From Candidatus Omnitrophota bacterium (GTDB lineage Bacteria; Omnitrophota; Gorgyraeia; Gygaellales; Profunditerraquicolaceae), in the NCBI GenBank assembly GCA_028716245.1, contig JAQUQW010000001.1, positions 388,322 to 452,321 on the forward strand: a DNA stretch of 64,000 bases, in the 5' to 3' direction. This document shows positions 4,436 to 62,344 of the stretch, piece by piece (within the stretch, counting starts at the first letter, position 1; each line of letters starts with the position of its first letter). The notes under the pieces are model-generated. The model was not told where the DNA came from, did not search any database, and saw only the letters and a program-made list of their open reading frames with translations. The position numbers and the translations under genes were made by a program.

Positions 4436-5202
4436 GGATAGCCAAGCTAATATCCACTTTCCTGATGGTAAGTTTGATTTTCTGCGCGCCTGTTTTTGCA
4501 GCTGCCTTTAGCGGGCAAATCAATGCGGACAATATAAACGCGCGGGTAGACGCGACAGTAGGTTCGGCTGTGATTTGCAGCCTTCCCAAAGGCCAATTGG
4601 TTGAAGTCGTCTCAGAAGCTTATGATTGGTACAAGATCCGCCTGCCGAAAGAAGCGCCATCATATGTAAAAAAAGATCTGGTCGAATGTATCAATCCCGA
4701 TCCTGTAACCAGCCCGGGAAAATGCCTTACTGCCAAGGTAATTAAAGACCGGATAAATATCCGGCTGGGGCCCAGTGAATCCACCTGGATCCTGGGGAAA
4801 GCGGATAAACTGACCGTAGTTAATATTTTGGCTCAAGAAAGCGGCTGGTATAAAATCCAGCCGATTTATCAAAGCTATGGCTGGGTAAATAAAAAATTTA
4901 TCAGCAAAGAAATAACGCTGCCTAAAAAGCAAAAAGCTGCGGAATTATCTGCCAAAGATATTCCATCCCATGGGGATCTTCTGGTTGTCGAAGGCACGGT
5001 TACTCCATATGGGGTAATTTTATGGCGCAAGGCAACGCATAAATTGGTTACTTCCGATAACAAGATTTATTTCCTAAAGGGTAACCGTAAAAGCTTAGAC
5101 AGCCTTAATTATCATAAGGTTAAAGTTACCGGAAAACTGATTAGCCCGGCCGCAAGCAAATACCCGATTATCCAGATCGACATTATCGAGGCATTAAGTT
5201 GA
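4432..5202 (+). CDS. secreted protein with tandem bacterial SH3-like domains
   Basis: Signal peptide; two repeats of the WYKI...GWV pattern typical of SH3b. Confidence 0.5.
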   Translation: MRIAKLISTFLMVSLIFCAPVFAAAFSGQINADNINARVDATVGSAVICSLPKGQLVEVVSEAYDWYKIRLPKEAPSYVKKDLVECINPDPVTSPGKCLTAKVIKDRINIRLGPSESTWILGKADKLTVVNILAQESGWYKIQPIYQSYGWVNKKFISKEITLPKKQKAAELSAKDIPSHGDLLVVEGTVTPYGVILWRKATHKLVTSDNKIYFLKGNRKSLDSLNYHKVKVTGKLISPAASKYPIIQIDIIEALS

Positions 5203-5828
5203 GTTTTTTAAGCCTGATTATCTCTTTTATCATATCCTTCGCGCTTTTGTTAATCGCGATGACTGTGCATGAATTCGCCCACGGTCTGGTTGCCTATAAG
5301 CGCGGGGATTCTACGGCCAGGTTAAGCGGACGGCTGACCCTGAATCCGCTGGCCCATATCGATCCGTTCTGGACGCTTCTTTTGCCGCTTATACTTTTCT
5401 TATCCACAGCCGGGCGTTTTGTTTTTGGCGCGGCCAAACCTGTTCCCATAAATTACTGGGCGCTGAAGAATCCCAAGAAAGACATTATTTGGATTGGTTT
5501 AAGCGGCCCGCTGGCTAACCTTATTTTAGCCTGGATTATTGCCGGCGTATTAAAATTTATCCCGCTCTCCGGTATCTTAGCCTACCTGCTGTTCCATTTG
5601 CTCACCATTAATGTCATTTTGGCAATATTCAACCTTATACCGATTCCTCCTCTTGACGGTTCGCGCGTTTTAATGGGCCTGTTACCGCCCGATCTTTCAG
5701 AGCAATACGCCAATTTAGAGCGTTATGGCTTTATTATTCTTTTTGCGCTTATCTGGCTGGGCATCTTTGACCGCATACTCTGGCCGCTGGTGGGACTGGT
5801 GATCAGAATGATGGGAGCGGGTTCTTAA
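5199..5828 (+). CDS. site-2 protease family (M50) integral membrane metalloprotease
   Basis: HEFAHG zinc motif in the first TM and the LDG motif (NLIPIPPLDGSRV); multi-TM. Confidence 0.65.
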   Translation: MSFLSLIISFIISFALLLIAMTVHEFAHGLVAYKRGDSTARLSGRLTLNPLAHIDPFWTLLLPLILFLSTAGRFVFGAAKPVPINYWALKNPKKDIIWIGLSGPLANLILAWIIAGVLKFIPLSGILAYLLFHLLTINVILAIFNLIPIPPLDGSRVLMGLLPPDLSEQYANLERYGFIILFALIWLGIFDRILWPLVGLVIRMMGAGS

Positions 5829-6930: not shown

Positions 6931-7401
6931 TTATCTGCGGGTGGAAAGGGTAATAAGCTTTTCTTGGTTGTTAAGTTCTACGGTATTTGCAGCAATCTTC
7001 ATTACTTTGGCCCCGTCTACCGAATCATTCTCCCGGACAATTTGGTTGTTGATTAAAGCGTAGCCGTCGTTATCGGAAAAGAAAATTCCGTTTAAAACAA
7101 AAGCAGCTTCCGGGATATTCTTTTCTTCTTTTTTAGCTAAGGCAGGTTCTTCGGGCAGGGGAGCCAAAACAACGGGTTGCTGGAGGGCGATTGCAGTTTT
7201 ATTTGGCGCCTGCGCGGTTTTTATTTTATCTCCCAACAGGCTAAAAATAAAGCTGCTCAAGGAAATTCCTAAGAGTAGAATTAAGATATAGAGCAAGAAT
7301 GGCCTGGGACCGGATTTTTTATCCAGAAATGAATTCTTTTTCGCTTCATTTTGCTGGATGTACTGCTCGGTTTTCTTTAATGCTTCATTAATAATGCTCA
7401 T
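6931..7401 (-). CDS. gspB: general secretion pathway protein B-like (GspB/ExeB)
   Basis: Bitopic protein immediately downstream of the ExeA-like ATPase, overlapping its stop; C-terminal region resembles the GspB family. Confidence 0.45.
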   Translation of the reverse strand: MSIINEALKKTEQYIQQNEAKKNSFLDKKSGPRPFLLYILILLLGISLSSFIFSLLGDKIKTAQAPNKTAIALQQPVVLAPLPEEPALAKKEEKNIPEAAFVLNGIFFSDNDGYALINNQIVRENDSVDGAKVMKIAANTVELNNQEKLITLSTRR

Positions 7402-8228
7402 ATATTTTGGGCTACCGAGTAGCTATCCAATTCTTCAACACATTTTTTGATAATATTAAAATCTATCTGGCTGGTTTCGCTGACAAATCCGGCTAAAAGC
7501 GCGCGATCACAGATCATATTAATTAATCGGGGGGTGCCCCCGGAAAAACGGCTGATCATATCCACAGCTTCAGCGCTAAATTCAATTTGCGGCCTATTGT
7601 CTGCGCCGGCAATCTCAAGGCGCCAGTTAATATAACTGCTTATCTCAGCGTTATCTAGCGGCCCAATATGGTATCTGACCATGATTCTTTGGCGCAATTG
7701 CCTTAAATCGTAGAGATTAAGGCGTTGGTTTAATTCCGGCTGCCCCACTAAAATCACCTGCAATAGTTTATCTTTTTCGGTTTCTAGATTTGATAGCAGG
7801 CGTATCTGTTCGAGCAAACCGGGCTTCAGGTTCTGAGCTTCATCAACGATTAATACCAGGTTATTGCCGGCGGCGGATTCTCTAAGCAGGAAGTTATTTA
7901 GCTCCAGCACCATGCCTAATTTAGTTTTATCCTTAGTGTTTATTCCGAAATCCCTGATGATCGATTCTAACAGTTGGACTTCAGAAAAGGTGGGATTTAG
8001 AATGAAAGCGGTTTTAACGTTTTTACCGACCTGATTCAGGAAAAAACGGCAGATCGTTGTTTTACCTGTGCCGATTTCTCCGGTTAAGACGATAATTCCT
8101 TTTCTCTGGGAGACTCCGTAGAGCAAGTGAGAGATAGCTTCTTTATGTTTTTTACTGGAAAAAAAGAAAGCCGGATCGCTGGTAACATTAAATGGCCTTT
8201 CTTTTAATCCATAGTATTTACAGTACAT
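7398..8228 (-). CDS. gspA: ExeA/GspA-like AAA+ ATPase
   Basis: Walker A GEIGTGKTT and Walker B LVLIVDEAQNL; ExeA-like N-terminus (LTGEIGTGKTT); 276 aa, lacks a peptidoglycan-binding extension. Confidence 0.7.
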   Translation of the reverse strand: MYCKYYGLKERPFNVTSDPAFFFSSKKHKEAISHLLYGVSQRKGIIVLTGEIGTGKTTICRFFLNQVGKNVKTAFILNPTFSEVQLLESIIRDFGINTKDKTKLGMVLELNNFLLRESAAGNNLVLIVDEAQNLKPGLLEQIRLLSNLETEKDKLLQVILVGQPELNQRLNLYDLRQLRQRIMVRYHIGPLDNAEISSYINWRLEIAGADNRPQIEFSAEAVDMISRFSGGTPRLINMICDRALLAGFVSETSQIDFNIIKKCVEELDSYSVAQNI

Positions 8229-8338
8229 TTTTCACCCGCCATTATTATAACACAGAATCAGGGAACGTTTCTATTTTTTTTCAAAAAAAATAGAAAAAAA
8301 ATAGAAACGTTCCTGGTTTCTCGTTTTTAAAATATTTA

Positions 8339-8374
8339 TTGACAAATTGACAGTATTATTATAAAATTTATAAT
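8339..8374 (+). promoter_or_regulatory. sigma-70 type promoter (tandem TTGACA; -10 TAAAAT/TATAAT) for the guaB-like/guaA/dnaE operon
   Basis: TTGACAAATTGACA then 16-17 nt spacer to TATAAT, about 85 nt upstream of ATG 8461 (RBS AAGGAGAA). Confidence 0.5.
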
Positions 8375-8460
8375 CCTTTCATTAGTTTTCCCAAAGCGGG
8401 CGAAATATTCATAACTTATTACAAAACAACGGGTTAATACTATAATAAGGAGAATTTAAG

Positions 8461-9621
8461 ATGGCGGAGTGGATCGGTATAAACAGGCGCGCAAGAAGGT
8501 GCTATGGCTTTGATGAGGTTGCCCTGGTTCCCGGAGCGCAAACTGTAAATCCTAATGAAGTCGATACGAGCTTTGAATTTAACGGGAAAAAGTTTAAAAT
8601 ACCCATCCTGGCGGCGGCTATGGATGGAGTGGTCAACGTTAAGTTTGCAATTGAAATGTCCCGCTTAGGCGGAATCGCGGTCTTAAACCTCGATGGGATC
8701 CAAACCCGTTACGAAAATCCGGATGAAGTACTGGAAGAAATTGCCAAAGCTACACCGCAAAAAGCTACCGAATTAATCCAAGTAGTTTATACTACTCCCA
8801 TAAAAGAGAAACTGGTTACCAAAAGGGTAGCCGAAATTAAAAAAGCCAAAGCTATGGCTGTGGTCAGCTGCATCCCGGCTAATGCCGAAAAATTCTCAAA
8901 ATTAGCGGTTAGCGCTGGAGCGGACATCTTTATCATCCAATCCACAGTCACTACGATTAAACACGTCTCTACGCAATATAAAACGCTGAATTTAATAAAA
9001 TTCTGTAAATCCATGAAAATCCCCGTGCTCCTGGGAAACTGCGTAACCTATGAGACAACTTTAGAGCTTATGCAAACCGGAGCCAGCGGCTTACTTATTG
9101 GCGTGGGCCCGGGGGCGGCTTGTACAACGCGCGGGGTATTGGGTATCGGAGTTCCTCAGGTCACCGCTACTGTTGATGCTTCCGGCGCGCGCGATTTTCA
9201 TTATAAACGCACGGGAAAATACGTCTCCATTATTACTGACGGCGGAATGAACCGGGGAGGGGATATCTGCAAGGCATTTGCCTGCGGGGCCGACGCGGTG
9301 ATGATCGGTTCGAGTTTTGCCCGCGCCCAAGAAGCTCCCGGCAGAGGATTTCACTGGGGGATGGCCACTTCACATGTTAACCTGCCCCGCGGAACCCGGA
9401 TTCAAGTCGGCACAACCGGCTCATTAAAAGAAATTTTACTCGGTCCCGCAAAAGTAGATGATGGCTCACAAAACCTTTTAGGCGCTTTAAAAACCTCCAT
9501 GGGTTCATTGGGTGCCTCAAACTTAAAAGAAATGCATGACGTAGAAATCATTATCGCTCCTTCAATCCAGACCGAAGGGAAAATATTCCAAGTAGGCCAA
9601 AGAGTGGGAATGGGAAAATGA
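8461..9621 (+). CDS. guaB: IMP dehydrogenase family protein lacking the CBS pair (GuaB-like)
   Basis: IMPDH TIM-barrel with catalytic-loop Cys ([11 protein letters not shown]); 386 aa, so no CBS subdomain; ATGA coupling to guaA. Confidence 0.7.
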
Positions 9622-11159
9622 CCAGACAAACAATTTTAATCTTGGATTTCGGCTCACAATACACGCAATTAATCGCCCGCCGGGTACGGGAAAACAAAGT
9701 TTTTTCAATAATTATTCCTTACAATACCCCGGCAAAAGAGATCGCCGCCCTAAACCCCAAAGGTTTAATCCTTTCCGGCGGTCCGGCTTCGGTAGTGAAT
9801 AAAAAATCTCCTTATCCTGACCCGGGAATCTTTAAACTTGGGGTACCTATTCTAGGCATCTGCTATGGAATGCAGGTTATTTGCGAGCTCTTGGGAGGAA
9901 AAGTAAAACATACCCGTGAGCGCGAATATGGAAAAGTAGAATTATTTATTGATGACAACCGCGACCTTTTCAGCCACCTGCCGGGTAATTTTACCTGCTG
10001 GGCCAGCCACGGGGATTATGTAACGAAAATGCCGGCGGGTTTTCACACCTCAAGCCACACTACCAATACGCCGATTGCCGCAATATCCAATCAAAAAAGA
10101 AAAATATACGCGGTACAATTCCACCCTGAAGTGACCCACACGGAAAAAGGCAATCAAATATTAAGTAACTTTTTATTCAAAATTTGCGGTGCTTCGGGAA
10201 GATGGAACATGCAGTCATTTATTAAAGAATCCGTCGAACATATTAAAAAAACTATCGGTCGTGATAAGGTCGTGCTGGGGCTAAGCGGAGGGGTGGATTC
10301 TTCGGTTGCCGCTCTATTAATCCATAAAGCGATCGGTAAAAACCTGCGTTGTATTTTTATCGATAACGGCCTGCTGCGCAAAGGCGAAGCTGAACAGGTT
10401 AAAAGCGTTTTTAAAGATATGTACCATCTCAATCTCAGTTATGTCGACAGGAGCAAAAGATTCCTTGAGCGCCTGAAGGGAATAACTGACCCGGAAGAAA
10501 AAAGAAAAATAATCGGTGATGAATTCATCAAAGTATTCGAAGAAGAAGCAAAAAAGACAAAAGGGGCAAAGTTTTTAGGACAGGGGACCCTTTATCCGGA
10601 TGTTATTGAATCTGTTTCACCCACCGGAGGCCCCAGCAGAAAGATCAAAAGCCACCATAATGTCGGAGGGCTTCCGGCGCAAATGAAGCTTAAACTTATT
10701 GAGCCCTTAAGGGAATTATTCAAAGATGAAGCGCGCGAAATCGGAAGGCAGTTGGGATTACCTGAAAATATCATCCAGCGCCAGCCATTTCCCGGCCCGG
10801 GCCTGGCCGTCAGGATCATCGGAGAGATAGATATCCAACGCTTAAATCTTTTACGTGAAGCGGATAAACGGGTAATCGAAGAAATTTCAAAAGCCGGCCT
10901 ATATGAACAAATCTGGCAATCCTTTGCCGTATTATTACCGATAAAAAGCGTGGGAATAATGGGTGATGAACGCACATATGAAAATGTCGCAGCACTTCGC
11001 TGCGTCTCCAGCTTTGACGGTATGACCGCCGACTGGGTAAAACTTCCTTATGAAGTTATGGAAAAAATCTCCAATCGGATCATTAACGAAGTGAAGGGGA
11101 TCAACCGGGTTGTTTACGATATCAGTTCCAAACCTCCTGCAACCATCGAGTGGGAATAA
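9618..11159 (+). CDS. guaA: GMP synthase (glutamine-hydrolysing)
   Basis: GATase1 domain (GICYGMQ) plus PP-loop SGGVDSS and the conserved C-terminal dimerisation domain ending ATIEWE. Confidence 0.92.
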
Positions 11160-11185
11160 ATAAAGGGAACGCTCCCTAGTTTCCT

Positions 11186-14100
11186 ATGTCTTCTGAATTC
11201 GTTCACCTGCATTTACACACGCAATACAGCCTGCTTGACGGGGCCTGCCGTATACCTGAAATACTGTCCATCGCCAAAAGTTTCAAAATGGATTCTCTGG
11301 CCATCACCGACCATGGCAGTATGTTCGGGGCAATCGAATTCTACCTGGAAGCGCAAAAAACAGGAATCAAGCCAATTATCGGTTGTGAAGTTTACGTTGC
11401 TCCGCAAAGCCGGCTGGATAAAGGCGGAAGCGGTATTGAAGACGTGGCGAATCATTTAATCCTCTTGGCCCGCGATGAAGAGGGCTACCGCAACTTAATG
11501 AAACTGGTCTCCATCGGTTACTTGGAAGGTTTCTATTACCGTCCGCGCATCGACAAAGAGGTATTAGCTACGCACGCCAAAGGATTAATCGCATCAAGTG
11601 CCTGCCTTAAAGGAGAGATCCCATCCCTTATATTGCAAAAACGTTTCAATGACGCGCTCAAAGCAGCTGATACTTATCAGAATATCCTGGGAAAAGGGAA
11701 CTTCTACTTAGAGATCCAAAGCAATTCTATTGCCGAGCAACTTGTTGTAAATGAAGGGATGTTTAAAATTTCCAAGGAACTGGGGATATCCTTGGTCGCC
11801 ACTAACGACGTACATTACCCCACCAGGGATAAAGCCGCCGCTCATGAGGCATTACTTTGCATCCAAACACAATCCACCCTTGACGATCCCAAGCATATGC
11901 GTTTTCAAACGGATGAATTTTATTTCCGTTCCCCCGAAGAGATGAAAAAATTATTTAAGGACTGCCCGCAGGCCTTACAAAATACCGTTGAGATTGCCCG
12001 GCGCTGTAATCTGGAACTGGATTTTAGCAAAATGCACCTGCCTAAATACGTGCCTCCGGAAGGAAAAGATAAGGAAAAGTTCCTGTTTGAGCTTTGCGAA
12101 AAAGGGTTAACTGCTAAAAATTTAAAAAATAACCCCGAAGTGCAAAAACGACTGGATCATGAATTAAAAATTATCCAGGATATGGGTTTTATCAGCTACT
12201 TCCTGATTGTCTGGGATTTCATCCACTATGCCAAAAGCCAGGGGATCCCGGTGGGCCCGGGAAGAGGCTCAGCCGCCGGAAGCCTGGTCAGTTTTCTTTT
12301 GGGAATTACCGATTTAGATCCGTTAAAATACGGGCTGCTTTTCGAAAGGTTCCTTAATCCGCAGCGTATGGGGCTGCCGGATATTGATATCGACTTTTGT
12401 TATGAACGCCGGCAAGAGGTCATCGATTATGTTACCAATAAATACGGGCAGGATAATGTCGCCCAGATTATTACCTTTGGAACAATGCAGGCTCGCGCCG
12501 TAATCAGGGACGTCGGCCGGGTCATGGGCGTTGCTTACGCGGATGTTGACCGGCTGGCTAAAATGATCCCGGCTGAACTGGACATAACCCTTAAAAAAGC
12601 CCTGGAGAGTGAACCGGAATTAAACAACCTTTACCAGAATGACCCGCAAATAACCAAACTGATCAATATCGCTTTGTCCTTAGAGGGATTAAACCGCCAT
12701 GCCTCGGTACACGCCGCCGGCGTAATTATCACGGACAAGCCGTTAAATAACTACATGCCCATATTTAAAACCGCGGATGACCAGATTACCACCGGCTATA
12801 GCATGGGAACCCTGGAAAAAATCGGTTTACTTAAAGTTGATTTTCTGGGTTTAAGAACACTTACTGTAATCGATGAAACCCTAAAACTCATCAAGCAAAC
12901 CCGGAGCATCCAAATTGATATTGAAAAAATACCGTTGGATGATCAAAACACTTACGCGCTGTTATCTTCAAGCCATACTATTGGAATATTCCAGGTAGAA
13001 AGTTCAGGGATGCGCGATTTACTTAAAAAACTTATGCCTGAACGCTTTGAGGATTTAATCGCCCTTCTTGCGCTTTACCGGCCCGGGCCAATTGGCTCAG
13101 GAATGCTGGATGACTTTATGAAACGTAAACACGGAACAATTCCGATTAAATACGAACACGCAAAACTTGAGCCCATCCTCAAAGAAACTTACGGAATTAT
13201 GGTTTATCAGGAACAGATTATGCAGATTGCCTCAAGCCTTGCAGGATTTTCTCTTGCCCAGGCGGATATTCTGCGTAAAGCTATGGGTAAAAAGATCCCG
13301 GAAGTAATGGAGAAGGAGCGAAAAAATTTCATCAACGGCTGCATTAAAAACGGGATAAAAGAGAGCACCGCCAGTAAAATATTCGATCTGATTGAATATT
13401 TCTCCGGATACGGATTTAATAAGTCGCATTCAACCGCTTATGCCTTAATTTCATACCGCACCGCTTATTTAAAAGCGAATTATCCGGTGGAATTCATGAC
13501 TGCCCTGCTTACCTCCGAACGTGATAACACGGATAAAATCGTCGAATATGTTAATGAATCAGCCCGCATGGGTTTAAAAGTGCAGCCACCGGATATAAAT
13601 GAGAGCGAAGTGCTTTTTAAAGTCGAGAATGAACAGACAATCCGTTTTGGCCTAATCGCCATAAAAAATGTGGGCCGAGGCGCTGCTGAATCGATCGTCA
13701 AGGCCAGGGAAAGCCTGAAGTTTAAAACCTTAGATGAACTCTGCCAACACGTAGATTTAAGATTGGCCAACCGTAAAGTCCTGGAAAGCCTGATCAAATG
13801 CGGGGCGCTGGATTGCTTCGGGGCATCCCGAGCCGGAATGTTTGCCAGCCTGGATATAATTTTAGAAGGGGCACAAAGAAGCCAGAAGGAAAAATCCAGC
13901 GGCCAGCTTTCATTCTTCGACCAAGCCCAGAAAGAGAATGGGTTTAAGAAAACTGAAAATAATCTACCCGTTGTGAAGGAGTGGCCGGAACCCCAGCTGC
14001 TTGCTTTTGAAAAAGATATGCTGGGCTTCTATGTCAGCGGCCATCCTTTGGCCCGTTATGCCAAGCAACTTAAACGTTTTGTTTCCTGCTCAACCTCTAA

Positions 14101-28494: not shown

Positions 28495-31227
28495 ATGGCA
28501 AAGAAATATGTTTACTCTTTCGGGGGCGGTAAAGCAGACGGTAATGAGAGCATGAAGAATCTTTTGGGTGGCAAAGGCGCCAACCTCGCGGAGATGGCCG
28601 GAAATAAAGATTTATTGCTGCCTGTGCCTCCAGGTTTTACCTGCACCACTGAAGTCTGCACATATTATTATCAGAATAAAAAGAAATACCCCAAAGAATT
28701 AAAAGCTCAAGTTATGGCCGCCCTGGAAAAGGTGGAGAAACTAATGGGCAGAAAATTCGGAGATGCCAATAATCCGCTTCTATTTTCAGTGCGCTCCGGA
28801 GCAAGAAAATCCATGCCCGGAATGATGGAGACAGTTTTAAATGTCGGCCTGACTGAAAAAACTATACCCGGCCTGGTTAAACAAAGCGGCTCAAACAGCC
28901 GTTTTGTTTATGATGCTTACCGCCGGCTGATTATGATGTACTCTGATGTCGTTATGGAAAAAGCCGCCGGTATCGAACCTAAAGGAGAAGAGGGAATCCG
29001 TAAGCAGTTGGAAGTTATTATGGCCCAGCTTAAAAAATCCAAAAACTATACCAGCGATACGGATTTAAATGTCGACGACCTCAAAAAACTCTGCGGACAG
29101 TTTAAAATCAGGATCAAAGAAGTCCTGGGCAAAGAATTCCCCGATGAACCTGTGGAGCAATTGTGGGGCGGGATTGGCGCGGTATTTTCTTCCTGGAACG
29201 GAAAACGCGCGATCAGCTATCGCCGCATCGAAAATATCCCGGATGAATGGGGCACAGCCGTAAACGTGCAGACCATGGTCTTCGGAAATATGGGAGATGA
29301 TTCGGCAACCGGAGTTGCCTTTACGCGTAACCCGGGAAATGGAGAAAATAATTTCTACGGTGAATATTTAATTAACGCGCAGGGTGAAGACGTAGTTGCC
29401 GGTATCCGCACTCCTGCTCCGATCAATGAATATTCAACCTCAAGCCACAATAAAGAACTGCTTACTTTGGAAAAAGCAATGCCCAGGATTTACCAAGAAC
29501 TGTATTCCATCCAGAACCGGCTGGAAAAACATTACCATGATATGCAGGATATTGAGTTTACCATTGAAAAAGGCAGGCTCTTTATGCTCCAATGCCGCGT
29601 GGGTAAACGCAACGGCCCGGCAGCCGTACGCATGGCAGTAGATATGGTCAAAGAAAAAATGATTAAAAAGGAACAGGCGGTAATGCGGGTAACTCCATCA
29701 CAGCTTGATGAATTACTGCACCCGATTATCGACCCTAAAACAGAATTAACGGTCAAGCCTTTTGCCAAAGGATTGCCGGCAGGACCGGGAGGAGCAAGCG
29801 GACAGATTGTCTTTTCATCCAATGACGCGGTAGAATGGGCTAAAGCCGGAAAAAAAGTAATCCTGGTGCGCGAAGAGACCAATCCTGAAGATGTTGAAGG
29901 AATGCGGGCATCCCAGGCGATCCTTACCGCCCGGGGAGGAATGACCAGCCACGCGGCTTTAGTTGCCCGCGGTTGGGGCAAATGCTGTATTGTCGGCTGC
30001 AACGCGATGCATGTTGATACCGAAAATAAATTGGTGCATATGGATAATAAAACCCTTAAAGAAGGGGACTGGGTTACCTTAAACGGAACCAAAGGCAATG
30101 TTTATGAAGGCAAGCTGCCGATGATGGATGCCTCCGAAGAAAATATGATTCTTTCGGCGTTTTTAAAGCTGTGCGACGGAGTAAGAAAATTAGGTGTTCG
30201 TACCAATGCGGATACCCCGGATGATGCCAAAAAAGCATTGCAGTTTGGAGCCGAAGGTATCGGGCTTTTCCGCACCGAACATATGTTCTACGGCCGTGGC
30301 GCTGATCAACCATTATTCCTGCTGCGTAAAATGATTGTTTCCAATACGCTTGAGGAACGGCAAAAAGCCTTGGATGAATTATTCCCGTTTGTGAAAAAAG
30401 ATATTAAGGGAACGATCGAAGCCATGGATGGATATCCTGTGGTTATCCGTTTGCTTGACCCGCCGCTGCATGAATTTGTGCCGCGCGAGCAGGCAAAGCT
30501 TGAGCAGCTGGCAGCCGACTTAAAGATCAGTATGCAGGAGTTATCCAAGAGGGCCGAAGGCCTGCATGAATCCAACCCGATGATGGGGCATCGCGGAGTG
30601 CGCCTGGGAATTACCTATCCGGAAGTAAGCGCTATGCAGATCCGCGCGATTTTAGAAGCAGCCGCGGAATTAGTTAAAGAAGGCAAAGATCCGTATCCGG
30701 AAATTATGATCCCGGTGGTCTGCGATGTAAAAGAACTGGAGGATCAATTTGCCATTGCCGAAAAGATTTATAAGGAAGTGCTGGCAAAATACGGATTGAA
30801 GAAATTGAAATTTCTACTGGGAACCATGATTGAGATCCCCCGCGCGGCTTTTGTCGCCGATAAACTGGCAAGTATCGCCAAATTCTTCTCCTTTGGGACC
30901 AATGATATGACCCAGATGGGTTTTGGTTTTTCAAGAGACGATATCGGCGGTTTTCTGCCGGAATACCTTAAAAAAGAAATCTTGCCTGAAGACCCGTTCC
31001 AAAGCATCGATCAGGAAGGCATCGGCGAGCTGATTAAATTAGGTATCAAGCGCGGACGCTTAACCAATAAAAAATTAGAAGTGGGAATCTGCGGGGAACA
31101 CGGCGGTGAGCCTAAATCCGTGGAGTTCTGCCATAATATAGGTATGGATTATGTCAGCTGCTCGCCTTTTAGGGTCCCGATCGCAAAATTAGCCGCAGCG
31201 CAAGCTGTATTGAAAAACAAAAAGTAA
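28495..31227 (+). CDS. ppdK: pyruvate, phosphate dikinase
   Basis: ATP-grasp N-terminus, phosphohistidine domain (GGMTSHAALVARGWGK), PEP-utilising C-terminus with catalytic Cys (ICGEHGG); 910 aa. Confidence 0.95.
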   Translation: MAKKYVYSFGGGKADGNESMKNLLGGKGANLAEMAGNKDLLLPVPPGFTCTTEVCTYYYQNKKKYPKELKAQVMAALEKVEKLMGRKFGDANNPLLFSVRSGARKSMPGMMETVLNVGLTEKTIPGLVKQSGSNSRFVYDAYRRLIMMYSDVVMEKAAGIEPKGEEGIRKQLEVIMAQLKKSKNYTSDTDLNVDDLKKLCGQFKIRIKEVLGKEFPDEPVEQLWGGIGAVFSSWNGKRAISYRRIENIPDEWGTAVNVQTMVFGNMGDDSATGVAFTRNPGNGENNFYGEYLINAQGEDVVAGIRTPAPINEYSTSSHNKELLTLEKAMPRIYQELYSIQNRLEKHYHDMQDIEFTIEKGRLFMLQCRVGKRNGPAAVRMAVDMVKEKMIKKEQAVMRVTPSQLDELLHPIIDPKTELTVKPFAKGLPAGPGGASGQIVFSSNDAVEWAKAGKKVILVREETNPEDVEGMRASQAILTARGGMTSHAALVARGWGKCCIVGCNAMHVDTENKLVHMDNKTLKEGDWVTLNGTKGNVYEGKLPMMDASEENMILSAFLKLCDGVRKLGVRTNADTPDDAKKALQFGAEGIGLFRTEHMFYGRGADQPLFLLRKMIVSNTLEERQKALDELFPFVKKDIKGTIEAMDGYPVVIRLLDPPLHEFVPREQAKLEQLAADLKISMQELSKRAEGLHESNPMMGHRGVRLGITYPEVSAMQIRAILEAAAELVKEGKDPYPEIMIPVVCDVKELEDQFAIAEKIYKEVLAKYGLKKLKFLLGTMIEIPRAAFVADKLASIAKFFSFGTNDMTQMGFGFSRDDIGGFLPEYLKKEILPEDPFQSIDQEGIGELIKLGIKRGRLTNKKLEVGICGEHGGEPKSVEFCHNIGMDYVSCSPFRVPIAKLAAAQAVLKNKK

Positions 31228-31231
31228 ATAA

Positions 31232-31263
31232 CAGGGGACGGTTCTCTAAAGAGAACCGTCCCC
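31232..31263 (+). terminator. REP-like hairpin copy B (CAGGGGACGGTTCTCT..AGAGAACCGTCCCC) between ppdK and the sigma factor gene
   Basis: 14-bp GC-rich stem seen in sequence, followed by AATAAAAAC; only 10 nt before the ATG at 31274, which has no SD, so more likely an attenuator or processing hairpin than a full terminator. Confidence 0.45.
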
Positions 31264-31273
31264 AATAAAAACG

Positions 31274-32089
31274 ATGGAAGCGTTAAAAACATATCTTAAA
31301 GAAGTCCGGCAGATACCTCTTTTGACTGCCAAGCAGGAGATCGAGTTAAATAAGCGGATCCGCAAGGGGGATGAAATGGCGCGCAAAGAAATGATTCGCG
31401 CCAATCTGCGTTTAGTAATTAATATCGCCAAGAGATACATGCGCCTGGGGACACCTTTTCTTGATCTGATCGAAGAAGGGAACCTAGGGCTGATGAAGGC
31501 GGTTGAAAAATTCGATCACCGTAAGGGTTTTCGTTTCTCAACTTACGCTGCCTGGTGGATCAAACAGGGAATTACCCGCTCAATCAGCGAACAAGGAAAG
31601 ATGATTCGCGTCCCGGTGTATATGAACGACTTGATCACCAAATGGAAAAAGAACAAAGAGAGCTTAAGCCAAAAATTAAAACGCGTCCCTTCAAATGAAG
31701 AGATCGCCAAGAAATTAAAACTTTCCCCTGAAAAAATGGACCAGATTAATTTCTGGATGTCCAGCACCACTTCCTCCTTGGAAGCGCCAATCGGGGAAAC
31801 CGATGAAAATCAGATATCGGACTTAGTGGAAGATAAAAATGCCGTGCCGCCGGACGCCGGCATCCAACGGCTGCTTAACCGGGAAAGGCTGGATAACCTT
31901 TTAGAAATTATGTCAGAGCGGGAAAAGGAAATTTTAAACCTGCGTTTTGGCCTGGCTAACGATAAACCGCAGACCTTGGCTGAGGTTGCCAAAAAACTGG
32001 GAGTTTCCCGCGAGAGGATCCGCCAGATTGAAGAGACGGCTTTAAGGAAACTAAGGAAATTCGTCGTCAGCCAGGAAAAGGAGCTTTAG
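31274..32089 (+). CDS. RNA polymerase sigma factor, sigma-70 family (regions 1.2, 2, 3, 4)
   Basis: Region 2 (LIEEGNLGLMKAVEKFD...FSTYAAWWIKQ) and region 4 HTH (TLAEVAKKLGVSRERIRQIE); 271 aa, so alternative (RpoS/RpoH-size) rather than primary. Confidence 0.8.
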   Translation: MEALKTYLKEVRQIPLLTAKQEIELNKRIRKGDEMARKEMIRANLRLVINIAKRYMRLGTPFLDLIEEGNLGLMKAVEKFDHRKGFRFSTYAAWWIKQGITRSISEQGKMIRVPVYMNDLITKWKKNKESLSQKLKRVPSNEEIAKKLKLSPEKMDQINFWMSSTTSSLEAPIGETDENQISDLVEDKNAVPPDAGIQRLLNRERLDNLLEIMSEREKEILNLRFGLANDKPQTLAEVAKKLGVSRERIRQIEETALRKLRKFVVSQEKEL

Positions 32090-32620
32090 ATGAATAATTC
32101 TCTGTTGGAAAAATCCATAAGAAACATTCCTGATTTCCCTAAACCGGGAATTCTTTTCCGCGATGTCACTACTTTAATTCAAAATAAAGAAGCTTTTAAA
32201 AAAGCCGTTGATTTGTTAGCCAAGAGGTACAAAGCAAAGGGGTTTGATAAAGTCGTCGGGGTGGAGGCGCGGGGATTTATTTTTGGAGCCGCAGTCGCCT
32301 ATAAAATCGGCGCGGGGTTTGTGCCGGTGCGCAAAAAAGGAAAACTCCCCTCTAAGACAATTTCTACGACTTACCAGCTGGAATACGGCACGGATACTTT
32401 GGAAATCCACCAAGACGCGATTGCTCCCGGTGAAAAAGTTTTAATTATCGATGACCTTTTGGCTACCGGCGGAACGGTTAAGGCGGCAACTGAGCTGGTC
32501 AGCCAGTTGGGAGGAAATATCGCAGAAATTGCTTTTGTCATAGAGTTGGTGGATTTAAAAGGAAAAGATAAGCTCAAAGAGTATCCGGTGTATTCTTTGA
32601 TTAAGTTTAAAGGAGAATAA
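32090..32620 (+). CDS. apt: adenine phosphoribosyltransferase
   Basis: PRPP-binding motif [13 protein letters not shown]; 176 aa; ATGA overlap with the sigma gene stop. Confidence 0.9.
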
Positions 32621-32623
32621 TCT

Positions 32624-32697
32624 GCCCCTGTAGCTCATAAGGATAGAGCAGCAGTTTCCTAAACTGCGTGCGGCAGGTTCGATTCCTGCCAGGGGCA
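32624..32697 (+). tRNA. tRNA-Arg(CCT)
   Basis: 74-nt cloverleaf folded by eye: acceptor GCCCCTG/CAGGGGC, D-arm GCTC/GAGC, anticodon stem GCAGT/ACTGC with loop TTCCTAA (anticodon CCT), T-arm GCAGG-TTCGATT-CCTGC; CCA not encoded. Confidence 0.9.
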
Positions 32698-32706
32698 CTT
32701 AACTTT

Positions 32707-33360
32707 ATGTATAACTTACACGCGCACACATTTTTAAGCGACGGTGACCTGCTCCCGTCAGAGGTAGCGGTACGCTATCAGGATAAAGGTTATAAGGTGA
32801 TCGCCATCACCGACCATGCCGACTATAGCAACATCAAACAAACCGCAAAAGCAATTGTGGAATTTTGTAAACGCTGGCCGAAGAATTCCGGAATTAAAGT
32901 TTTACCGGGAATCGAATTAACCCACCTGCCTCCTGAACAGTTTAAACCGCTGGCATCCCTGGCCAGAAAAGAAGGAATTAAAATTATTATTGCTCACGGA
33001 GAAACTCCGGTTGAGCCTGTTGCAAAAGATACTAATCATTTAGCCTTAATGGCTGATATTGATATTTTGGCCCACCCCGGATTAATTACTGATGAAGATA
33101 CAAAACTTGCCAAAGAACGCGGGGTGTTTCTGGAAATCACCAGCCGCCGCGGCCATAAAGAAACAAATACCCACGTAATCAATCAGGCCAGAAAATTCGG
33201 GGCAAAATTAATTTTAAACAACGACAGCCATACTCCGGAAGATATTATTACCCCGGGCCAATTAATCAAGGAAGGCTTGGATTCCGGATTAACCCAAACT
33301 GAAATTAACACAATTTATCAAAATATAAAAGAACTCTTAGCCAAAAAGGAGGTAAAATGA
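32707..33360 (+). CDS. PHP-domain metal-dependent phosphoesterase
   Basis: LHAHTFLSDG...ITDHADY PHP motifs; the track ORF start (32668) lies inside the tRNA, so start reassigned to the internal ATG (MYNLHAHT). Confidence 0.6.
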   Translation: MYNLHAHTFLSDGDLLPSEVAVRYQDKGYKVIAITDHADYSNIKQTAKAIVEFCKRWPKNSGIKVLPGIELTHLPPEQFKPLASLARKEGIKIIIAHGETPVEPVAKDTNHLALMADIDILAHPGLITDEDTKLAKERGVFLEITSRRGHKETNTHVINQARKFGAKLILNNDSHTPEDIITPGQLIKEGLDSGLTQTEINTIYQNIKELLAKKEVK

Positions 33361-33821
33361 AGTTTGCAAAACCTTTTTCCTTTATCTCTATAAGCTGCCT
33401 GCTGGCTATTGCCCTGTTAGGCTGCTCGACTTTTTCCGATAATCCAAAATCCCTAAACTCGGGAGCGCTTGAACCTCAGGCAATTTTAAAATTCAGCGAT
33501 GTGCCGGTGCCTGTAGGCTTAAAATCCCTGCCCCAGGCATCATATTCTTTTGAAAGCTCGGGGGTGCGCGTAGGAGTTTTAAAATACCAGGGCAAAGCCA
33601 ATGCCGACCAGGTAATTGGTTTCTATAAGGAGCAAATGGCGATATACAACTGGAACCTGGTAAACATCGTCGAGTACGGGCAGAGGTTGATCAACTTCGA
33701 ACGTGAAAATGAAACCTGTATTATCACTATAGAACCCAAAGGTAATACCGTAATTTTAACTATTTCTCTTGGCCCAAAATCACAAAATTTGGCTAAAAAG
33801 GCCAGGGCGCCGGTAAAATAA
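33357..33821 (+). CDS. lipoprotein, hypothetical
   Basis: Lipobox LLGCS; ATGA overlap with the PHP gene. Confidence 0.45.
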   Translation: MKFAKPFSFISISCLLAIALLGCSTFSDNPKSLNSGALEPQAILKFSDVPVPVGLKSLPQASYSFESSGVRVGVLKYQGKANADQVIGFYKEQMAIYNWNLVNIVEYGQRLINFERENETCIITIEPKGNTVILTISLGPKSQNLAKKARAPVK

Positions 33822-33971
33822 ACTAAACCGGACCCTGTTTTAAAAAAACTCTTGACAAATATAGAGTTATGTGCAAAAATTATTCAAATGAAATTATCCT
33901 AGGCAATAAGATTATTAGCCTAGTTAACCATATATCCATAAACAGTTAACAAAAAAAGGAGGAGTAAAAAA

Positions 33972-35303
33972 ATGGGTAAACGCTTGATTTTAGTATTAGC
34001 GCTTGCTTTACTAGTCGGCCTGACATTTAGCGCCGCCTACGCAGAAGTGCAGAATGTAAAGGTATCCGGAGACATTTTAGTAAGTGGCGTAGACAGAAAT
34101 CACTTTAACTTAATTAATTCAAATCCGGGAGACAAAAGTGTTCTAAAGCAGAACTTTTTAATGTCTCAGGTCAGATTACGTATTGACGCAGATCTTACAG
34201 ATAACGTCATCGCGACAGTAAGACTGATCAATGAAAGAATCTGGAACGGACAGATGGATTCCGGAGCTGCTAGTACCAATAACCAAAATATTGATGTCGA
34301 CCTCGCTTATGCTACTATGAAAGAATTTTTGTATTCGCCTTTAACTCTAACTGTCGGCCGCCAGGAAATTAAATTCGGCAACGGTTTGGTTATTGGTAAT
34401 TCAAAAATTGCCGGTAGTTCATCAAGCATTCCTAATGACTTAACGGAACAAAAAGCTTTTGATGCAATCCGCGCAACCTTAAACTATGATCCATTAATTG
34501 TGGACTTAGTTTATGCTCAAGTCAAACAAAGTAATTCAGTTGACAGAAACACTGTCAGCCTAACTGGTATGAATGCCGCATATGCTTTAAACAAGAAGAC
34601 TGATGTTTCTGTCTATTATTGGCTTAAGGATAATAACAACAATGCTGCTATCGGTACCAGCAGAGATGATAAACTCTCTACAGTTGGCGCTTTAATTTCC
34701 AACTCTTCGATTGAGAATTTAGCCGCTTCTTTAGAAGCTGCCTATCAGTTTGGCAAAAATACTGAAATGGCTAGCGCAAAAAGGCATGATGCCTGGGCTT
34801 TACAAGCAATGGCAGATTATACTTTTGCCAAAGTTAAGACAACTCCTAAGATCGGTGCTTCTTATACTTTTCTTTCCGGATCTAACACCGGTGGCACCAG
34901 AAATCAGGGTTGGGATCCTATGTTCTACGATCAAAAACTCAACAGTATAGTTTACACGCTGCTACCTTTTTCAAATATGAATGCTTATAATTTAAGAGGC
35001 AGCATGAAACCGGTTGATGATGTTACAGTATCCTTAGTTTATGGATACTATGATGTAGCACAAAAGAATAGCGCGGCATTTACTGCTCCATTCACCTATG
35101 ATAATGGAATTGCATACCTAGGATCTACAGCATATACCGGAAAAAGACATCTGGGTAGTGCGCTGGACGGGTCTATAACTTATGATTACACTGAAGATGT
35201 CCAGTTTGGTTTAACCGGCGGTTATTTTACAGCAGGTGACGCGCTCACCACTAAAACAGCCAATGCAACCCAGTTAATCGGATCAATGAAAGTAATATTC
35301 TAA
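33972..35303 (+). CDS. outer-membrane beta-barrel protein (porin-like)
   Basis: Signal peptide (AAYA-EV), alternating amphipathic beta-strand pattern, C-terminal aromatic residue (..MKVIF); 443 aa. Confidence 0.5.
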   Translation: MGKRLILVLALALLVGLTFSAAYAEVQNVKVSGDILVSGVDRNHFNLINSNPGDKSVLKQNFLMSQVRLRIDADLTDNVIATVRLINERIWNGQMDSGAASTNNQNIDVDLAYATMKEFLYSPLTLTVGRQEIKFGNGLVIGNSKIAGSSSSIPNDLTEQKAFDAIRATLNYDPLIVDLVYAQVKQSNSVDRNTVSLTGMNAAYALNKKTDVSVYYWLKDNNNNAAIGTSRDDKLSTVGALISNSSIENLAASLEAAYQFGKNTEMASAKRHDAWALQAMADYTFAKVKTTPKIGASYTFLSGSNTGGTRNQGWDPMFYDQKLNSIVYTLLPFSNMNAYNLRGSMKPVDDVTVSLVYGYYDVAQKNSAAFTAPFTYDNGIAYLGSTAYTGKRHLGSALDGSITYDYTEDVQFGLTGGYFTAGDALTTKTANATQLIGSMKVIF

Positions 35304-35326
35304 TACAACTTATGTAGAAACACTTG

Positions 35327-35361
35327 AAACCCTCGGGGGAGAAATCCTCCGAGGGTTTTTT
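35327..35361 (+). terminator. rho-independent terminator after the porin gene
   Basis: AAACCCTCGG-loop-CCGAGGGTTT followed by TTTTTT. Confidence 0.75.
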
Positions 35362-35376
35362 CTTGATACTTAAATC

Positions 35377-36924
35377 ATGTTAAATCTTGCCTTTATCTTT
35401 CATATGCACCAGCCGTATTATAAGGACCTCTTAACGCAAGAGAGTGATCTTCCCTGGGTCAGGTTACACGGCGTTAAGGATTACCTGGATATGGTACAGA
35501 TCCTGGAAAAATTCCCTAAGATCAAACAAACCTTTAATGTTGTGCCGTCTTTATTCGAGCAGGTCGAAGATTATAATAATGGAAAAGTAAGCGATAAATA
35601 TCTTGAGTTAAGTAAAAAACCGGCAGCGGAATTATCCAAACATGATCAGGAATTTGTCCTGCAGAATTTCTTTTCCATAAACAACGAAAAAGTGATCTCC
35701 ACTTTTCCGCGTTATTACCAACTCCACTTCAAAAAACACCATCGCCTGGAATTCTTGACCCAGGATTACCTGGACTTGCAGCTTTTGTTTAATCTGGCCT
35801 GGATCGATCCGTCTTTCCGGCAGAATATCCCTGAACTTAAAAAAATAGTCTTAAAGGAAAGATTCTTTAATGAACAGGATAAGGCAACTGTCCTGGATAA
35901 ACAGTTAAGCATCTTAAAAGAAATTATCCCTGCCTACTGCCTTTTTAAACAGAATAACCAGATTGAGATCAGCGTTACTCCTTATTATCATCCCATCTTG
36001 CCGCTTCTTTGCTCGACGAACACCGCCAAAGAAGCAAACCATAAAACAATCTTGCCCAAAGAAGAGTTTCGCTATCCGCAAGACGCAAAAGATCAAATTG
36101 ACAGCGCAGTAAAATATTATCGGGAGAGGTTTGGCTGTCCGCCGCACGGTATGTGGCCGTCGGAAGAAGGAGTAAGCGAAGAGATCCTGCCGTTTATTAT
36201 TAAATCCGGGATAAAGTGGGTAGTTACCGACGAGGCAATTTTATTTAAATCTTTAAAGATAAAAAAACGTGACACTAAGCTCCTTTATCAGCCTCACCTG
36301 TTAAAAAGGAAGGAGGGGGAGCTGAATATTGTTTTTCGCGACCGCAACCTCTCGGATTTAATCGGTTTCTCTTATCACAAGATGAAAGAAACTGAGGCGG
36401 TAAATAACTTTATGGCGCATTTGGAAAATATCCACAAAACCTTCAAAAACAAGGATATCCTGGTAACCGTAGCCATGGACGGAGAAAACGCCTGGGAATA
36501 TTTCCGCAATGACGGCCATGATTTCCTGGAATTATTTTATAAACATCTATCCGAAGCGCCTTTTGTAAAAACTACCACCGTCAGCGAATATTTAAAAAAT
36601 AACCCGCCGGAAAAATCAGAAATAAAACACTTAAGCGCGGGCAGCTGGATCTATGGAGAATTCGGCAAATGGATCGGCAGCCCCTATAAAGTAAAAGCCT
36701 GGGAGTGGCTGACGCAGGCGCGCAAAGCAATAAAAGAAACTAAAGAACCAGGCGAGCTGGCCTGGAAGCAAATGTATATCTTAGAGGGCAGTGATTGGTT
36801 CTGGTGGGCAGGAGAAGACCCGGATGGCTCATTTGACCGGCTGTTCAGGCTGCACCTGACTAACTTTTATAAGCTAATTGACAAAGAGCCGCCGGCATAT
36901 CTCTCCAAGCCCTTAACCCCTTGA
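35377..36924 (+). CDS. glycoside hydrolase family 57 (alpha-glucan branching/amylase type)
   Basis: GH57 N-terminal signature FHMHQPYY and a typical 515-aa length. Confidence 0.85.
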   Translation: MLNLAFIFHMHQPYYKDLLTQESDLPWVRLHGVKDYLDMVQILEKFPKIKQTFNVVPSLFEQVEDYNNGKVSDKYLELSKKPAAELSKHDQEFVLQNFFSINNEKVISTFPRYYQLHFKKHHRLEFLTQDYLDLQLLFNLAWIDPSFRQNIPELKKIVLKERFFNEQDKATVLDKQLSILKEIIPAYCLFKQNNQIEISVTPYYHPILPLLCSTNTAKEANHKTILPKEEFRYPQDAKDQIDSAVKYYRERFGCPPHGMWPSEEGVSEEILPFIIKSGIKWVVTDEAILFKSLKIKKRDTKLLYQPHLLKRKEGELNIVFRDRNLSDLIGFSYHKMKETEAVNNFMAHLENIHKTFKNKDILVTVAMDGENAWEYFRNDGHDFLELFYKHLSEAPFVKTTTVSEYLKNNPPEKSEIKHLSAGSWIYGEFGKWIGSPYKVKAWEWLTQARKAIKETKEPGELAWKQMYILEGSDWFWWAGEDPDGSFDRLFRLHLTNFYKLIDKEPPAYLSKPLTP

Positions 36925-36959
36925 CATAGATAGGGTTTTGTGTTATAAGATATATTCAA

Positions 36960-37532
36960 ATGAATAAGAAAGAAATCTACGAACATCTGGCGAATATTTA
37001 TCTGGATGCCTCTTCTAAATCATCAAAGAAAAAAAATAAATTCAGCCCTTATCCTAAAGCAATATGGGGCATCGTAATTTTGGGATTGGTAACCGCCTTA
37101 GGTTTAGGCAGCGCGGTTACTTATTTCCATATTAATAACCGCAGTCCCAAAGGGCAAATCGCCTTATTTTTATATCAAGATTCGGCTAAAATAAATTTTA
37201 ACTTTGATCCCGCCAAAAGAGAAACTTTTTCCATCAACCTTAAACAATTAAATTTATCCAAATATAAAGCCTTGGCCTTTAGCGTAAGAAAAACTAACTC
37301 TAAAGATATAATTTCATTAAGGGTGGAATTTATTAACCGCTTTAATGAAAAATCCGAAGTTTACGTGAAAGATATTTCCGGTAAATGGACGCAGGAAAAC
37401 TTGGATTTTAGCCGTTTTGCTAAAATGAACGACTGGACCCAGATGAAGGCATTGGCTTTTAGCATTGAAGAATGGAACGCCCGCGAAAAATCAGGCATAG
37501 TTTATCTTGATAATATAAAGGTAATCAAATAA
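36960..37532 (+). CDS. membrane-anchored protein with internally repeated beta-rich ectodomain (possible carbohydrate-binding module)
   Basis: Basic N-terminus, one TM, two repeats (KYKALAFSVRK / QMKALAFSIEE); ends in a CBM-like ..IVYLDNIKVIK. Confidence 0.35.
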   Translation: MNKKEIYEHLANIYLDASSKSSKKKNKFSPYPKAIWGIVILGLVTALGLGSAVTYFHINNRSPKGQIALFLYQDSAKINFNFDPAKRETFSINLKQLNLSKYKALAFSVRKTNSKDIISLRVEFINRFNEKSEVYVKDISGKWTQENLDFSRFAKMNDWTQMKALAFSIEEWNAREKSGIVYLDNIKVIK

Positions 37533-42270: not shown

Positions 42271-42282
42271 GCTATAGATATA

Positions 42283-42298
42283 CCACACATTTGTGTGG
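42283..42298. promoter_or_regulatory. candidate LexA operator: perfect palindrome CCACACA-TT-TGTGTGG
   Basis: Seen in sequence 13 nt upstream of the lexA start; autoregulated lexA genes typically carry their own operator here. Confidence 0.45.
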
Positions 42299-42333
42299 TT
42301 TGTCAAGAAAAATTAAAGGGGCGCCTCTAAAAT

Positions 42334-42381
42334 AAAGGGGACGGTTCTATTCCTTGGTTAAAAAATAGAACCGTCCCCTTT
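42334..42381 (-). terminator. REP-like hairpin copy C (AAAGGGGACGGTTCTAT-loop-ATAGAACCGTCCCCTTT)
   Basis: 17-bp stem with A/T-rich flanks, between the zinc-ribbon sORF and lexA on the minus strand. Confidence 0.55.
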
Positions 42382-42389
42382 ATTCTTAT

Positions 42390-61980: not shown

Positions 61981-62344
61981 ATGCGCTTCTTGATAGCCCC
62001 GCTTTTCTTTGGCCTTGTTGCCAATAAAGATCCAGGTCGATTTTGTATAAACCACCATCGATCAAGCTGTAATTTAGGCCCCAGCTAAAAGTCTTACCCG
62101 ACTTTTGAAATTCACCTGTTGTTTGCAGCTGGGCCAAAGCGCCAAACTTATTCAAACCATCCTGCGCCTGCCAAAGCTGTTCATCCATCCACGGAATAAG
62201 GTTGAGATAATTGGTGTAACGGTTAAAGGCATCTAAGGAAGTAAAAAATGCCCCATATATCAGAACAGTCCCCAGAGACAAAACCACTGTGGTAACCATT
62301 ACCTCTATAAGGGTAAACCCTTTATTCCCAATTTTTAACGTCAT
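61955..62344 (-). CDS. gspI: GspI-like minor pseudopilin
   Basis: KG-FTLIEVMVTTVVLSLG prepilin signal; start ambiguous (62344, 62365 or 62389). Confidence 0.55.
   Translation of the reverse strand: MTLKIGNKGFTLIEVMVTTVVLSLGTVLIYGAFFTSLDAFNRYTNYLNLIPWMDEQLWQAQDGLNKFGALAQLQTTGEFQKSGKTFSWGLNYSLIDGGLYKIDLDLYWQQGQRKAGLSRSAYAEYKKKE

Follow-up and report, generated by a model that had tools for sequence, protein, structure and literature searches.

Introduction

REP sequences are short extragenic palindromes, which are normally species-specific and usually lie as inverted doublets downstream of genes. In the classical REP / REPIN-RAYT systems of E. coli and Pseudomonas (RAYT groups 2 and 3), these repeats flank a single-copy Y1 tyrosine-transposase gene and have been recruited to terminate transcription or to stabilise mRNA. 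A related arrangement was described by Di Nocera et al. (2013), who termed the gene together with its repeats a TIRtron and the enzymes TIRYTs; the flanking repeats share the motif GGGGWSAS, and in some genomes moderately abundant TIR families occur as dimers or clusters (PMC3733652). Most TIRYTs fall into TnpA-Y1 subclass 2.1 according to Quentin et al. (2018), who found no REP-like sequences beside those genes (PMC6006769). This subclass is equivalent to RAYT group 1 of Bertels et al. (2017, PMC5581495). Group 1 exceeds all other RAYT groups in size and in breadth of distribution, and is described in the literature as lacking REP-like partners.

Here we analysed three conspicuous hairpins, termed A, B and C, in a 64-kb stretch of an Omnitrophota genome (in the following, the window). 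They can be explained as one repeat family, and are likely to be REP/MITE-like doublets of the ends of TIRYT-type transposases (“TIRtron” repeats), with two canonical copies and one diverged copy. The kind of repeat is already known and is reported here from an Omnitrophota genome.

Results

An initial annotation of the window had grouped three intergenic hairpins into one family, and all of them were found where it had placed them. Copies B (31234–31263) and C (42331–42384) are canonical doublets which have an exact 12-bp core in common, GGGGACGGTTCT / AGAACCGTCCCC. The 12-mer GGGGACGGTTCT occurs exactly four times in the 64 kb, namely in both arms of B and both arms of C. In copy B, the core doublet GGGGACGGTTCTCT / AGAGAACCGTCCCC forms arms of 14 bp (31234–31247 / 31250–31263), and in copy C the arms comprise 21 bp (AATAAAGGGGACGGTTCTATT; 42331–42351 / 42364–42384) around a 12-nt loop; the arms are 100% complementary in both copies. 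In copy A (8259–8316), the inverted doublet is formed by a variant core, with the arms GGGAACGTTTCT (8261–8272) and AGAAACGTTCCT (8303–8314), separated by a 30-nt spacer consisting of A and T only. Its full arms read GGGAACGTTTCTAT on the left (from 8261) and ATAGAAACGTTCCT on the right (to 8314); the only non-Watson-Crick position of the stem is found at its base, where GGG stands opposite CCT. When the window was searched with the pattern GGGRACGKTTCT, allowing at most one mismatch, eight matches were obtained as compared to 0.78 expected, a number that was reached in 0 of 100 shuffles.

Copy A differs from B and C at core positions 4 and 8 by two compensated changes, and the difference between CTAT and CTCT is likewise mirrored on the right arms, as the initial annotation had recognised. 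Among related sequences, A is separated from the GGGGACGTTTCT variant, which is carried by the Omnitrophota loci L035 and L046, by one compensated G:C to A:T change and one basal mismatch. The A-rich direct repeat that had been noted inside A corresponds to positions 8283–8296 (AAAAAAAATAGAAA), which duplicate the inner right arm in truncated form. This segment could serve as an alternative pairing partner of 8268–8281, to which it is 100% complementary over 14 nt with 1 nt between the arms, and analogous nested or tandem arm duplications were found in other genomes.

RNA folding of the three copies yielded free energies of −27 to −39 kcal/mol, with z-scores of −8.4 for A, −7.7 for B and −9.4 for C relative to shuffled controls; B folds into a 13-bp stem with a UAAA loop. 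The remaining terminator-like hairpins of the window have stems unrelated to the core of A, B and C. In a search against Rfam 15 at the gathering threshold, a tRNA was the sole match both in the window and in 18 loci, and all matches of the core to an E. coli rrn operon (16S, 23S, 5S and three tRNAs) had at least two mismatches, which corresponds to chance level. A literature search with sequence strings of the repeat retrieved unrelated primers only, and in exact-protein look-ups the sigma factor, APRT and the ExeA-like proteins were not on record. A lone core-like site at 62262–62273 (minus strand; GGGGACTGTTCT), which has one mismatch and lacks a partner arm, is probably a chance match.

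The gene contexts of the three copies were as described in the initial annotation, with A between divergent genes and B and C at co-directional junctions. Copy B is located between the genes for pyruvate phosphate dikinase and a sigma-70 factor, beginning 6 nt past the stop codon of the former and ending 10 nt before the start codon of the latter. Copy C lies between a gene for a 54-aa zinc-finger protein and lexA, both on the minus strand, on which it follows the stop of the zinc-finger gene and precedes the lexA promoter. The suggestion that B and C are terminator-like is plausible for C, the stem of which is followed by a U-tract (UUUAUUUU) on the minus strand, i.e., the strand of its upstream gene; C is a credible intrinsic terminator just before the lexA promoter. 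For B the case is weak: on the plus (coding) strand the stem is followed by AAUAAAAAC and no U-tract was found, a terminator being flagged on the minus strand only. No room for a promoter is left between B and the sigma gene. We infer that B is more likely an intercistronic hairpin, which would dampen read-through or shield the 3′ end of the upstream mRNA, than a full terminator.

Copy A is positioned between a gene for an ExeA/GspA-like AAA ATPase (minus strand) and an IMPDH-family gene (plus strand) followed by guaA. As its flanking genes are divergent, it has no upstream gene to terminate. The left arm of A supplies a weak −35-like hexamer for the minus-strand gene, so that A overlaps a candidate −35 of this gene, and on the other side A lies 23 nt upstream of a promoter that matches the consensus at 12 of 12 positions. 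No RNA role is evident for A, and one may speculate that it is either neutral or influences the divergent promoters, a setting that is rare for this repeat family. The initial annotation had singled out A as more likely a protein-binding or REP-type element; membership in a REP-type family was borne out, and the separation from B and C was not, as A is a diverged copy of the same element in an unusual divergent context. Two further features of these intergenic regions were observed. The consensus promoter next to A is a sigma-70 promoter (TTGACA-16-TATAAT, 8339–8374) upstream of the IMPDH-family / guaA operon. Moreover, a perfect 18-bp palindrome (ACCACACATTTGTGTGGT, 42282–42299), which is kept in the related contigs L214 and L216, sits between a −35 hexamer TTGACA (42301–42306, minus strand) and the likely lexA start ATG (42269, minus strand) and is a candidate LexA operator of this lineage.

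A scan of species-representative genomes with GGGGACGKTTCT-N(0-30)-AGAAMCGTYCCC revealed core doublets at no fewer than 120 loci in approximately 102 assemblies (species-level genomes), representing about eight phyla as labelled, where the phylum labels of MAGs can be wrong. The GC content of these loci ranged from 26 to 72% among the matches listed. Hosts include isolates of the Bacillota (Oribacterium, Butyrivibrio, Neobacillus, Maledivibacter, Fonticella and others), an isolate of the Actinomycetota (Micropruina glycogenica) and at least nine other Omnitrophota MAGs, as well as contigs labelled Bacteroidota, Aminicenantes, Elusimicrobiota, Planctomycetota and “delta proteobacterium”, with the same reservation about MAG labels. 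In the 130 doublets among the matches listed, the K and M positions always matched each other and Y was always C, although the pattern had allowed otherwise. Several copies can occur within 8 kb, with five in L050 and three each in L013 and L052 among the matches listed. In viral contigs, the real core was detected in 6 contigs with 11 elements, versus 0, 0 and 3 contigs for three shuffled cores, which had kept the GGGG start and for which only one of the 3 contigs carried a true palindrome.

The arrangement of the doublets follows a common pattern. Adjacent cores point with their GGGG ends outward in 152 pairs, versus a single pair in the other orientation. The sequence between the two arms is not conserved, and half-sites are spaced by 2–30 nt in A to C and by 4–30 nt elsewhere. 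Many Bacillota have cores that are individually enclosed in a short inverted repeat of their own (X-core-X′), with an X that varies from lineage to lineage, and a profile of the flanks of 341 arms gave A/C-A-A/T. With regard to genes, 81 of the 130 doublets among the matches listed could be classified: 50 lie between co-directional, 25 between convergent and 6 between divergent genes. Co-directional and convergent junctions together place 75 of these listed matches downstream of a gene, and for the 130 listed doublets the nearest upstream stop codon is at a median distance of 27.5 nt. An all-against-all BLAST comparison of the 120 listed loci showed no enrichment of any neighbouring gene, except for a generic cluster in 14 loci.

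The core also occurs unpaired, in direct tandem arrays without an inverted partner. Locus L012 carries a direct array of at least four copies with a 21-nt period, and in Micropruina (L061) four direct copies are followed by four inverted ones with a 23-nt period and spacers which are not complementary. In the direct arrays (L012, L061, L039 and others), the spacing has maxima near 21, 34 and 46 nt, which comes close to whole turns of the helix, and the Micropruina arrays switch orientation at a centre.

Two of the repeat-containing loci led to a gene family, which was noticed from arrays bracketing an ORF and not from neighbour enrichment. In L012, two opposed core arrays bracket a 258-aa ORF (4676–5452), and in L050 two core doublets bracket a 285-aa ORF (868–1722). 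Both encode Y1_Tnp proteins (PF01797, E about 1e-16; 2.5e-16 quoted) and the core is inverted around both genes; the best NCBIfam match of the two proteins is “REP-associated tyrosine transposase”, below the cut-off of that model. The family is large, comprising 660 proteins at E ≤ 1e-10, and has invariant HUH histidines and an invariant catalytic tyrosine, the motifs NHVH, FQDRF, Y[VI]H.NP and WSS and an HTH-like C-terminal tail, for which the L050 protein shows a weak HTH_3 match. In an alignment of Y1 proteins of about 255–285 aa (A1), N59, H60, H62, Y119, N123, P124, W137, S138 and S139 are invariant. This motif set agrees with the signature of TnpA-Y1 subclass 2.1 / RAYT group 1 (compared with Table 1 of PMC6006769). 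A PDB sequence search with the Y1 profile gave no significant match, the TnpA-REP structure 4ER8 being reached at E = 0.63.

A metagenome scan that was seeded with the Y1 protein alone yielded 80 loci. At 31 of them, the core (at most one mismatch) was found on the plus strand 60–230 nt upstream and on the minus strand downstream of the gene, for which we estimate a chance expectation of about 0.35 hits. These 31 loci span a GC content of 0.27–0.67, and their proteins are only about 30–48% identical to the query. The remaining Y1 loci of the 80 have related ends, for example GGGGTCAGGTCTTG, GGGGACAGGT and GGGACGTTTCC, and relatives of the same enzyme with the ends GGGGTCAG... and GGGGACAG... 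fit GGGGWSAS fully. Furthermore, the ends of individual units, about 1 kb apart, still share the same variant, as in L132 (GGGGTCGGTCCT), L148 (AGGGACGGTTCC) and L151 (AGGGACGGTTCT). In L140, L157, L142, L182 and others, the sequence that comes directly after the upstream terminal repeat is cTTGACA, likely the −35 of the promoter of the Y1 gene, so that the repeat abuts or supplies this hexamer.

The link to a REP-associated transposase, which the initial annotation had raised as a possibility, is thus real in other genomes. Neither the 64-kb window nor the nine Omnitrophota loci contain a Y1 transposase gene, and when the 80 Y1 loci were searched by tblastx for contigs related to Omnitrophota, nothing convincing was obtained. 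Many of the Y1-bearing contigs in the list from the 660-protein search are only about 0.9–1.4 kb long; metagenome assemblies apparently end at the repeats on either side of the gene, and Y1 units would be hidden as a result.

These data also bear on the earlier proposal that the matching arms reflect selection on the hairpin and not on the primary sequence, which could not be upheld. The 12-nt core is invariant across phyla with a GC content of 26–72%, it is also present unpaired in direct arrays, and variant cores are the same at transposase ends about 1 kb apart. Matching arms can be accounted for if both arms are copies of one recognition sequence and are therefore no proof of selection on pairing.

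Comparison with related contigs showed that repeat copies turn over between close relatives, both at the site of C and at a break next to A. For C, we compared seven contigs which encode an identical 54-aa protein and have 86–93% nucleotide identity to the window. One of them (L214) contains an identical copy C; L211, L213, L215 and L216 are without C and have two other hairpins there instead, and L212 and L217 carry a different short form, GGGGACGGTTC-tattttt-GAACCGTCCCC. The right arm of an older hairpin (AGAGGCGCC), the second of these two, persists as a relic in the window at 42318–42328 (minus strand), and this hairpin is intact in the relatives lacking C (alignment A2). Near A, the homology of L218, which is 97.5% identical to 8325–11433, ends 9 nt to the right of the repeat, and L218 keeps the consensus sigma-70 promoter (8339–8374) without the adjacent A arm.

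A different picture emerged for B. Locus L046 is syntenic with 30538–37433 of the window at about 70% identity, and its junction orthologous to B contains a degenerate hairpin, GGGGCGG..AGAACCGCCCC (with its flanks, caGGGGCGG..AGAACCGCCCCtg), that looks like a decayed copy. A degenerate hairpin at the orthologous site of such a distant relative points to long vertical retention and a host function at the B site, not to recent mobility. Some repeat copies are therefore long-lived and probably of use to the host. In the same locus, an extra small gene with a hydrophobic N-terminus (L046 3752–4177) is followed by a GGGGACGTTTCT doublet, and at this position the window has only a 16-nt junction (33822–33838).

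Discussion

Among described systems, the TIRtrons and their TIRYT enzymes are closest to the repeats of this study. In both cases, a Y1 gene is bracketed by inverted repeats that start with GGGG, and repeats are also dispersed as dimers or clusters: in-window evidence consists of three extragenic inverted dimers in 64 kb, up to five copies per 8 kb are found elsewhere, and arrays occur in addition. The enzymes share the motifs NHVH, FQ, Y..NP and SS as well as the HTH-like C-terminal tail, and have a wide but patchy distribution across phyla. B and C match the core of the inverted repeats at 12 of 12 positions, with the bracketing itself being shown in other genomes. There are also differences from the published description. 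The core GGGGACGG... agrees with GGGGWSAS at 7 of 8 positions, having G instead of A at position 7, and the full 12-mer is invariant across proteins of only about 30% identity and genomes of 26–72% GC. Moreover, the repeats are present in Omnitrophota and form direct arrays with a period of 21–23 nt, and they accompany genes of subclass 2.1, at which no REP-like sequences were found by Quentin et al. (PMC6006769).

The classical REP / REPIN-RAYT systems resemble the present family in that short extragenic palindromes, usually inverted doublets downstream of genes, flank a Y1 transposase gene. However, an unpaired GTAG 5′ of the core is absent from A, B and C, whose flanks read ..AATCA, ..TAACA and ..ATAAA; the 12-mer is shared between phyla instead of being a species-specific palindrome, and the enzymes belong to a different subclass with a profile that matches 4ER8 only weakly. 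The features of the CGTC-tagged REPs of Di Nocera et al. (2013) were not found in the three copies either: there is no unpaired CGTC head, CGTC being located inside the paired core AGAACCGTCCCC, and no CCA tail. With intrinsic (Rho-independent) terminators, copy C has in common a long GC-containing stem and the U-tract on the strand of the upstream gene, but the stem is a shared repeat, and the other two copies lack a coding-strand U-tract (B) or an upstream gene (A).

Because the same core forms the terminal inverted repeats of Y1 genes, the doublets look like a unit without its gene. Each element consists of two inverted copies of the 12-bp core GGGGACGKTTCT, whose GGGG ends point outward, around a spacer of no fixed sequence, and would correspond to a TIRtron unit from which the Y1 gene has been deleted. 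The doublets may be copied or moved by a TIRYT which recognises the core in single-stranded hairpin DNA and whose gene lies elsewhere in the genome or has been lost, and such mobilisation would have occurred in the source genome. Doublets would survive mainly just downstream of genes, where the transcribed hairpin could be co-opted, C presumably as an intrinsic terminator and B as an intercistronic hairpin at the RNA level. The sequence family, its spread across genomes, the association with Y1 genes elsewhere and the turnover between close relatives are direct observations.

Several other explanations were weighed against this model. A mobile origin would not be needed if the hairpins were ordinary host-evolved terminators or mRNA hairpins that are alike by chance or convergence, as suggested by the canonical stem and U-tract of C, by the presence of a hairpin at the B site in the distant relative L046 and by the location of most family members just past stop codons. 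We regard this as very unlikely, since the exact 12-mer common to B and C is far beyond chance and recurs across a GC range of 26–72%, and since A has no gene to terminate and B no coding-strand U-tract; the spread across genomes, the direct arrays and the bracketing of transposase genes largely refute it. The doublets could also be MITEs of another mobile element, such as a DDE-type insertion sequence, with the Y1 genes merely lying within or beside the repeats. Their geometry is indeed that of terminal inverted repeats, and the window encodes no transposase of any kind. Still, this is unlikely. None of the three copies is flanked by direct target-site duplications, the hallmark of DDE-type MITEs, and many genomes have inverted instead of direct repeats at the flanks. 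Nor do the 120 listed loci show enrichment of any other gene family beside the repeats. Furthermore, Y1 genes are bracketed at fixed distances and in fixed orientation at 31 of 80 independent loci, often with the upstream repeat abutting the −35 of the Y1 gene.

Palindromic operators for a host DNA-binding protein, either a regulator or a nucleoid protein, would fit the position of A, which overlaps the candidate minus-strand −35, is close to the consensus promoter and might control the divergent promoters of exeA and the IMPDH-family gene. The spacings of the direct arrays near whole helical turns (about 21, 34 and 46 nt) and the HTH-like tail of the associated transposases would agree with protein binding as well. 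Nevertheless, we consider operators highly improbable: the half-site spacing varies from 2 to 30 nt in A to C and from 4 to 30 nt elsewhere, most copies are found at gene 3′ ends with only 6 of 81 classified copies between divergent genes among the matches listed, and the close relative L218 keeps the promoter without the A arm. Inverted 12-mer pairs at gene ends, together with type II secretion and pilus-related genes nearby, are furthermore reminiscent of DNA-uptake sequences, which form inverted pairs in terminators in Neisseria and Haemophilus. Such a role is hardly credible, given that uptake sequences are lineage-specific and the core is shared by unrelated phyla, brackets transposase genes and has a low density of three sites in 64 kb. 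The reading as TIRtron-derived doublets is therefore preferred.

Among further candidates, a tRNA-like 12-bp minihelix was dropped because the distal part is variable and CCA is missing. Domain V of group II introns shares ACGGTTC with the repeat, but the order of the arms is wrong, and CRISPR remnants were discarded on account of a wrong period and spacing. Sites of invertible segments were considered and dropped as well. CsrA-binding GGA loops were abandoned since, to our knowledge, CsrA is absent from several of the phyla that host the repeat.

For the family as a whole, the core stays constant, with enzymes that share as little as about 30% identity and hosts whose GC content lies between 26 and 72%. 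We tentatively suggest that group 1 RAYT / TIRYT enzymes could drive a single pan-bacterial REP-like system in which GGGGACGGTTCT is the core that they recognise. If so, a single testable DNA target would be available for a whole enzyme class, and the repeat would be conserved between phyla, unlike the usual REPs, which are conserved within species. We know of no established DNA partner for the group 1 RAYT / TIRYT enzymes beyond the loose GGGGWSAS motif, of no biochemical work on subclass 2.1 and of no experiment showing that its enzymes move such repeats. A 12-mer which brackets Y1 genes and extends from Clostridia with 26% GC to Actinomycetota with 72% GC and to Omnitrophota offers biochemists a concrete substrate. 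In addition, the core might be used as a simple annotation marker for widespread terminator-like repeats that break metagenome assemblies, and the example of the window cautions against reading matching arms as RNA covariation.

Family members can also be located in frame within coding genes, as is known for Rickettsia palindromic elements (RPE) and intragenic REPs. Unlike RPE, the repeats have no in-frame copy in the window, and the sequences are unrelated. In a MAG labelled Muribaculaceae (L018), in-frame core insertions were observed at three sites of a dihydrolipoyl-dehydrogenase-like ORF (7125–7909). These insertions are made up of doublets of the core and of one arm repeated three times in tandem, and they encode GDGS...EPSP segments, and the same gene contains a separate GTAGGG...CCCTAC palindrome.
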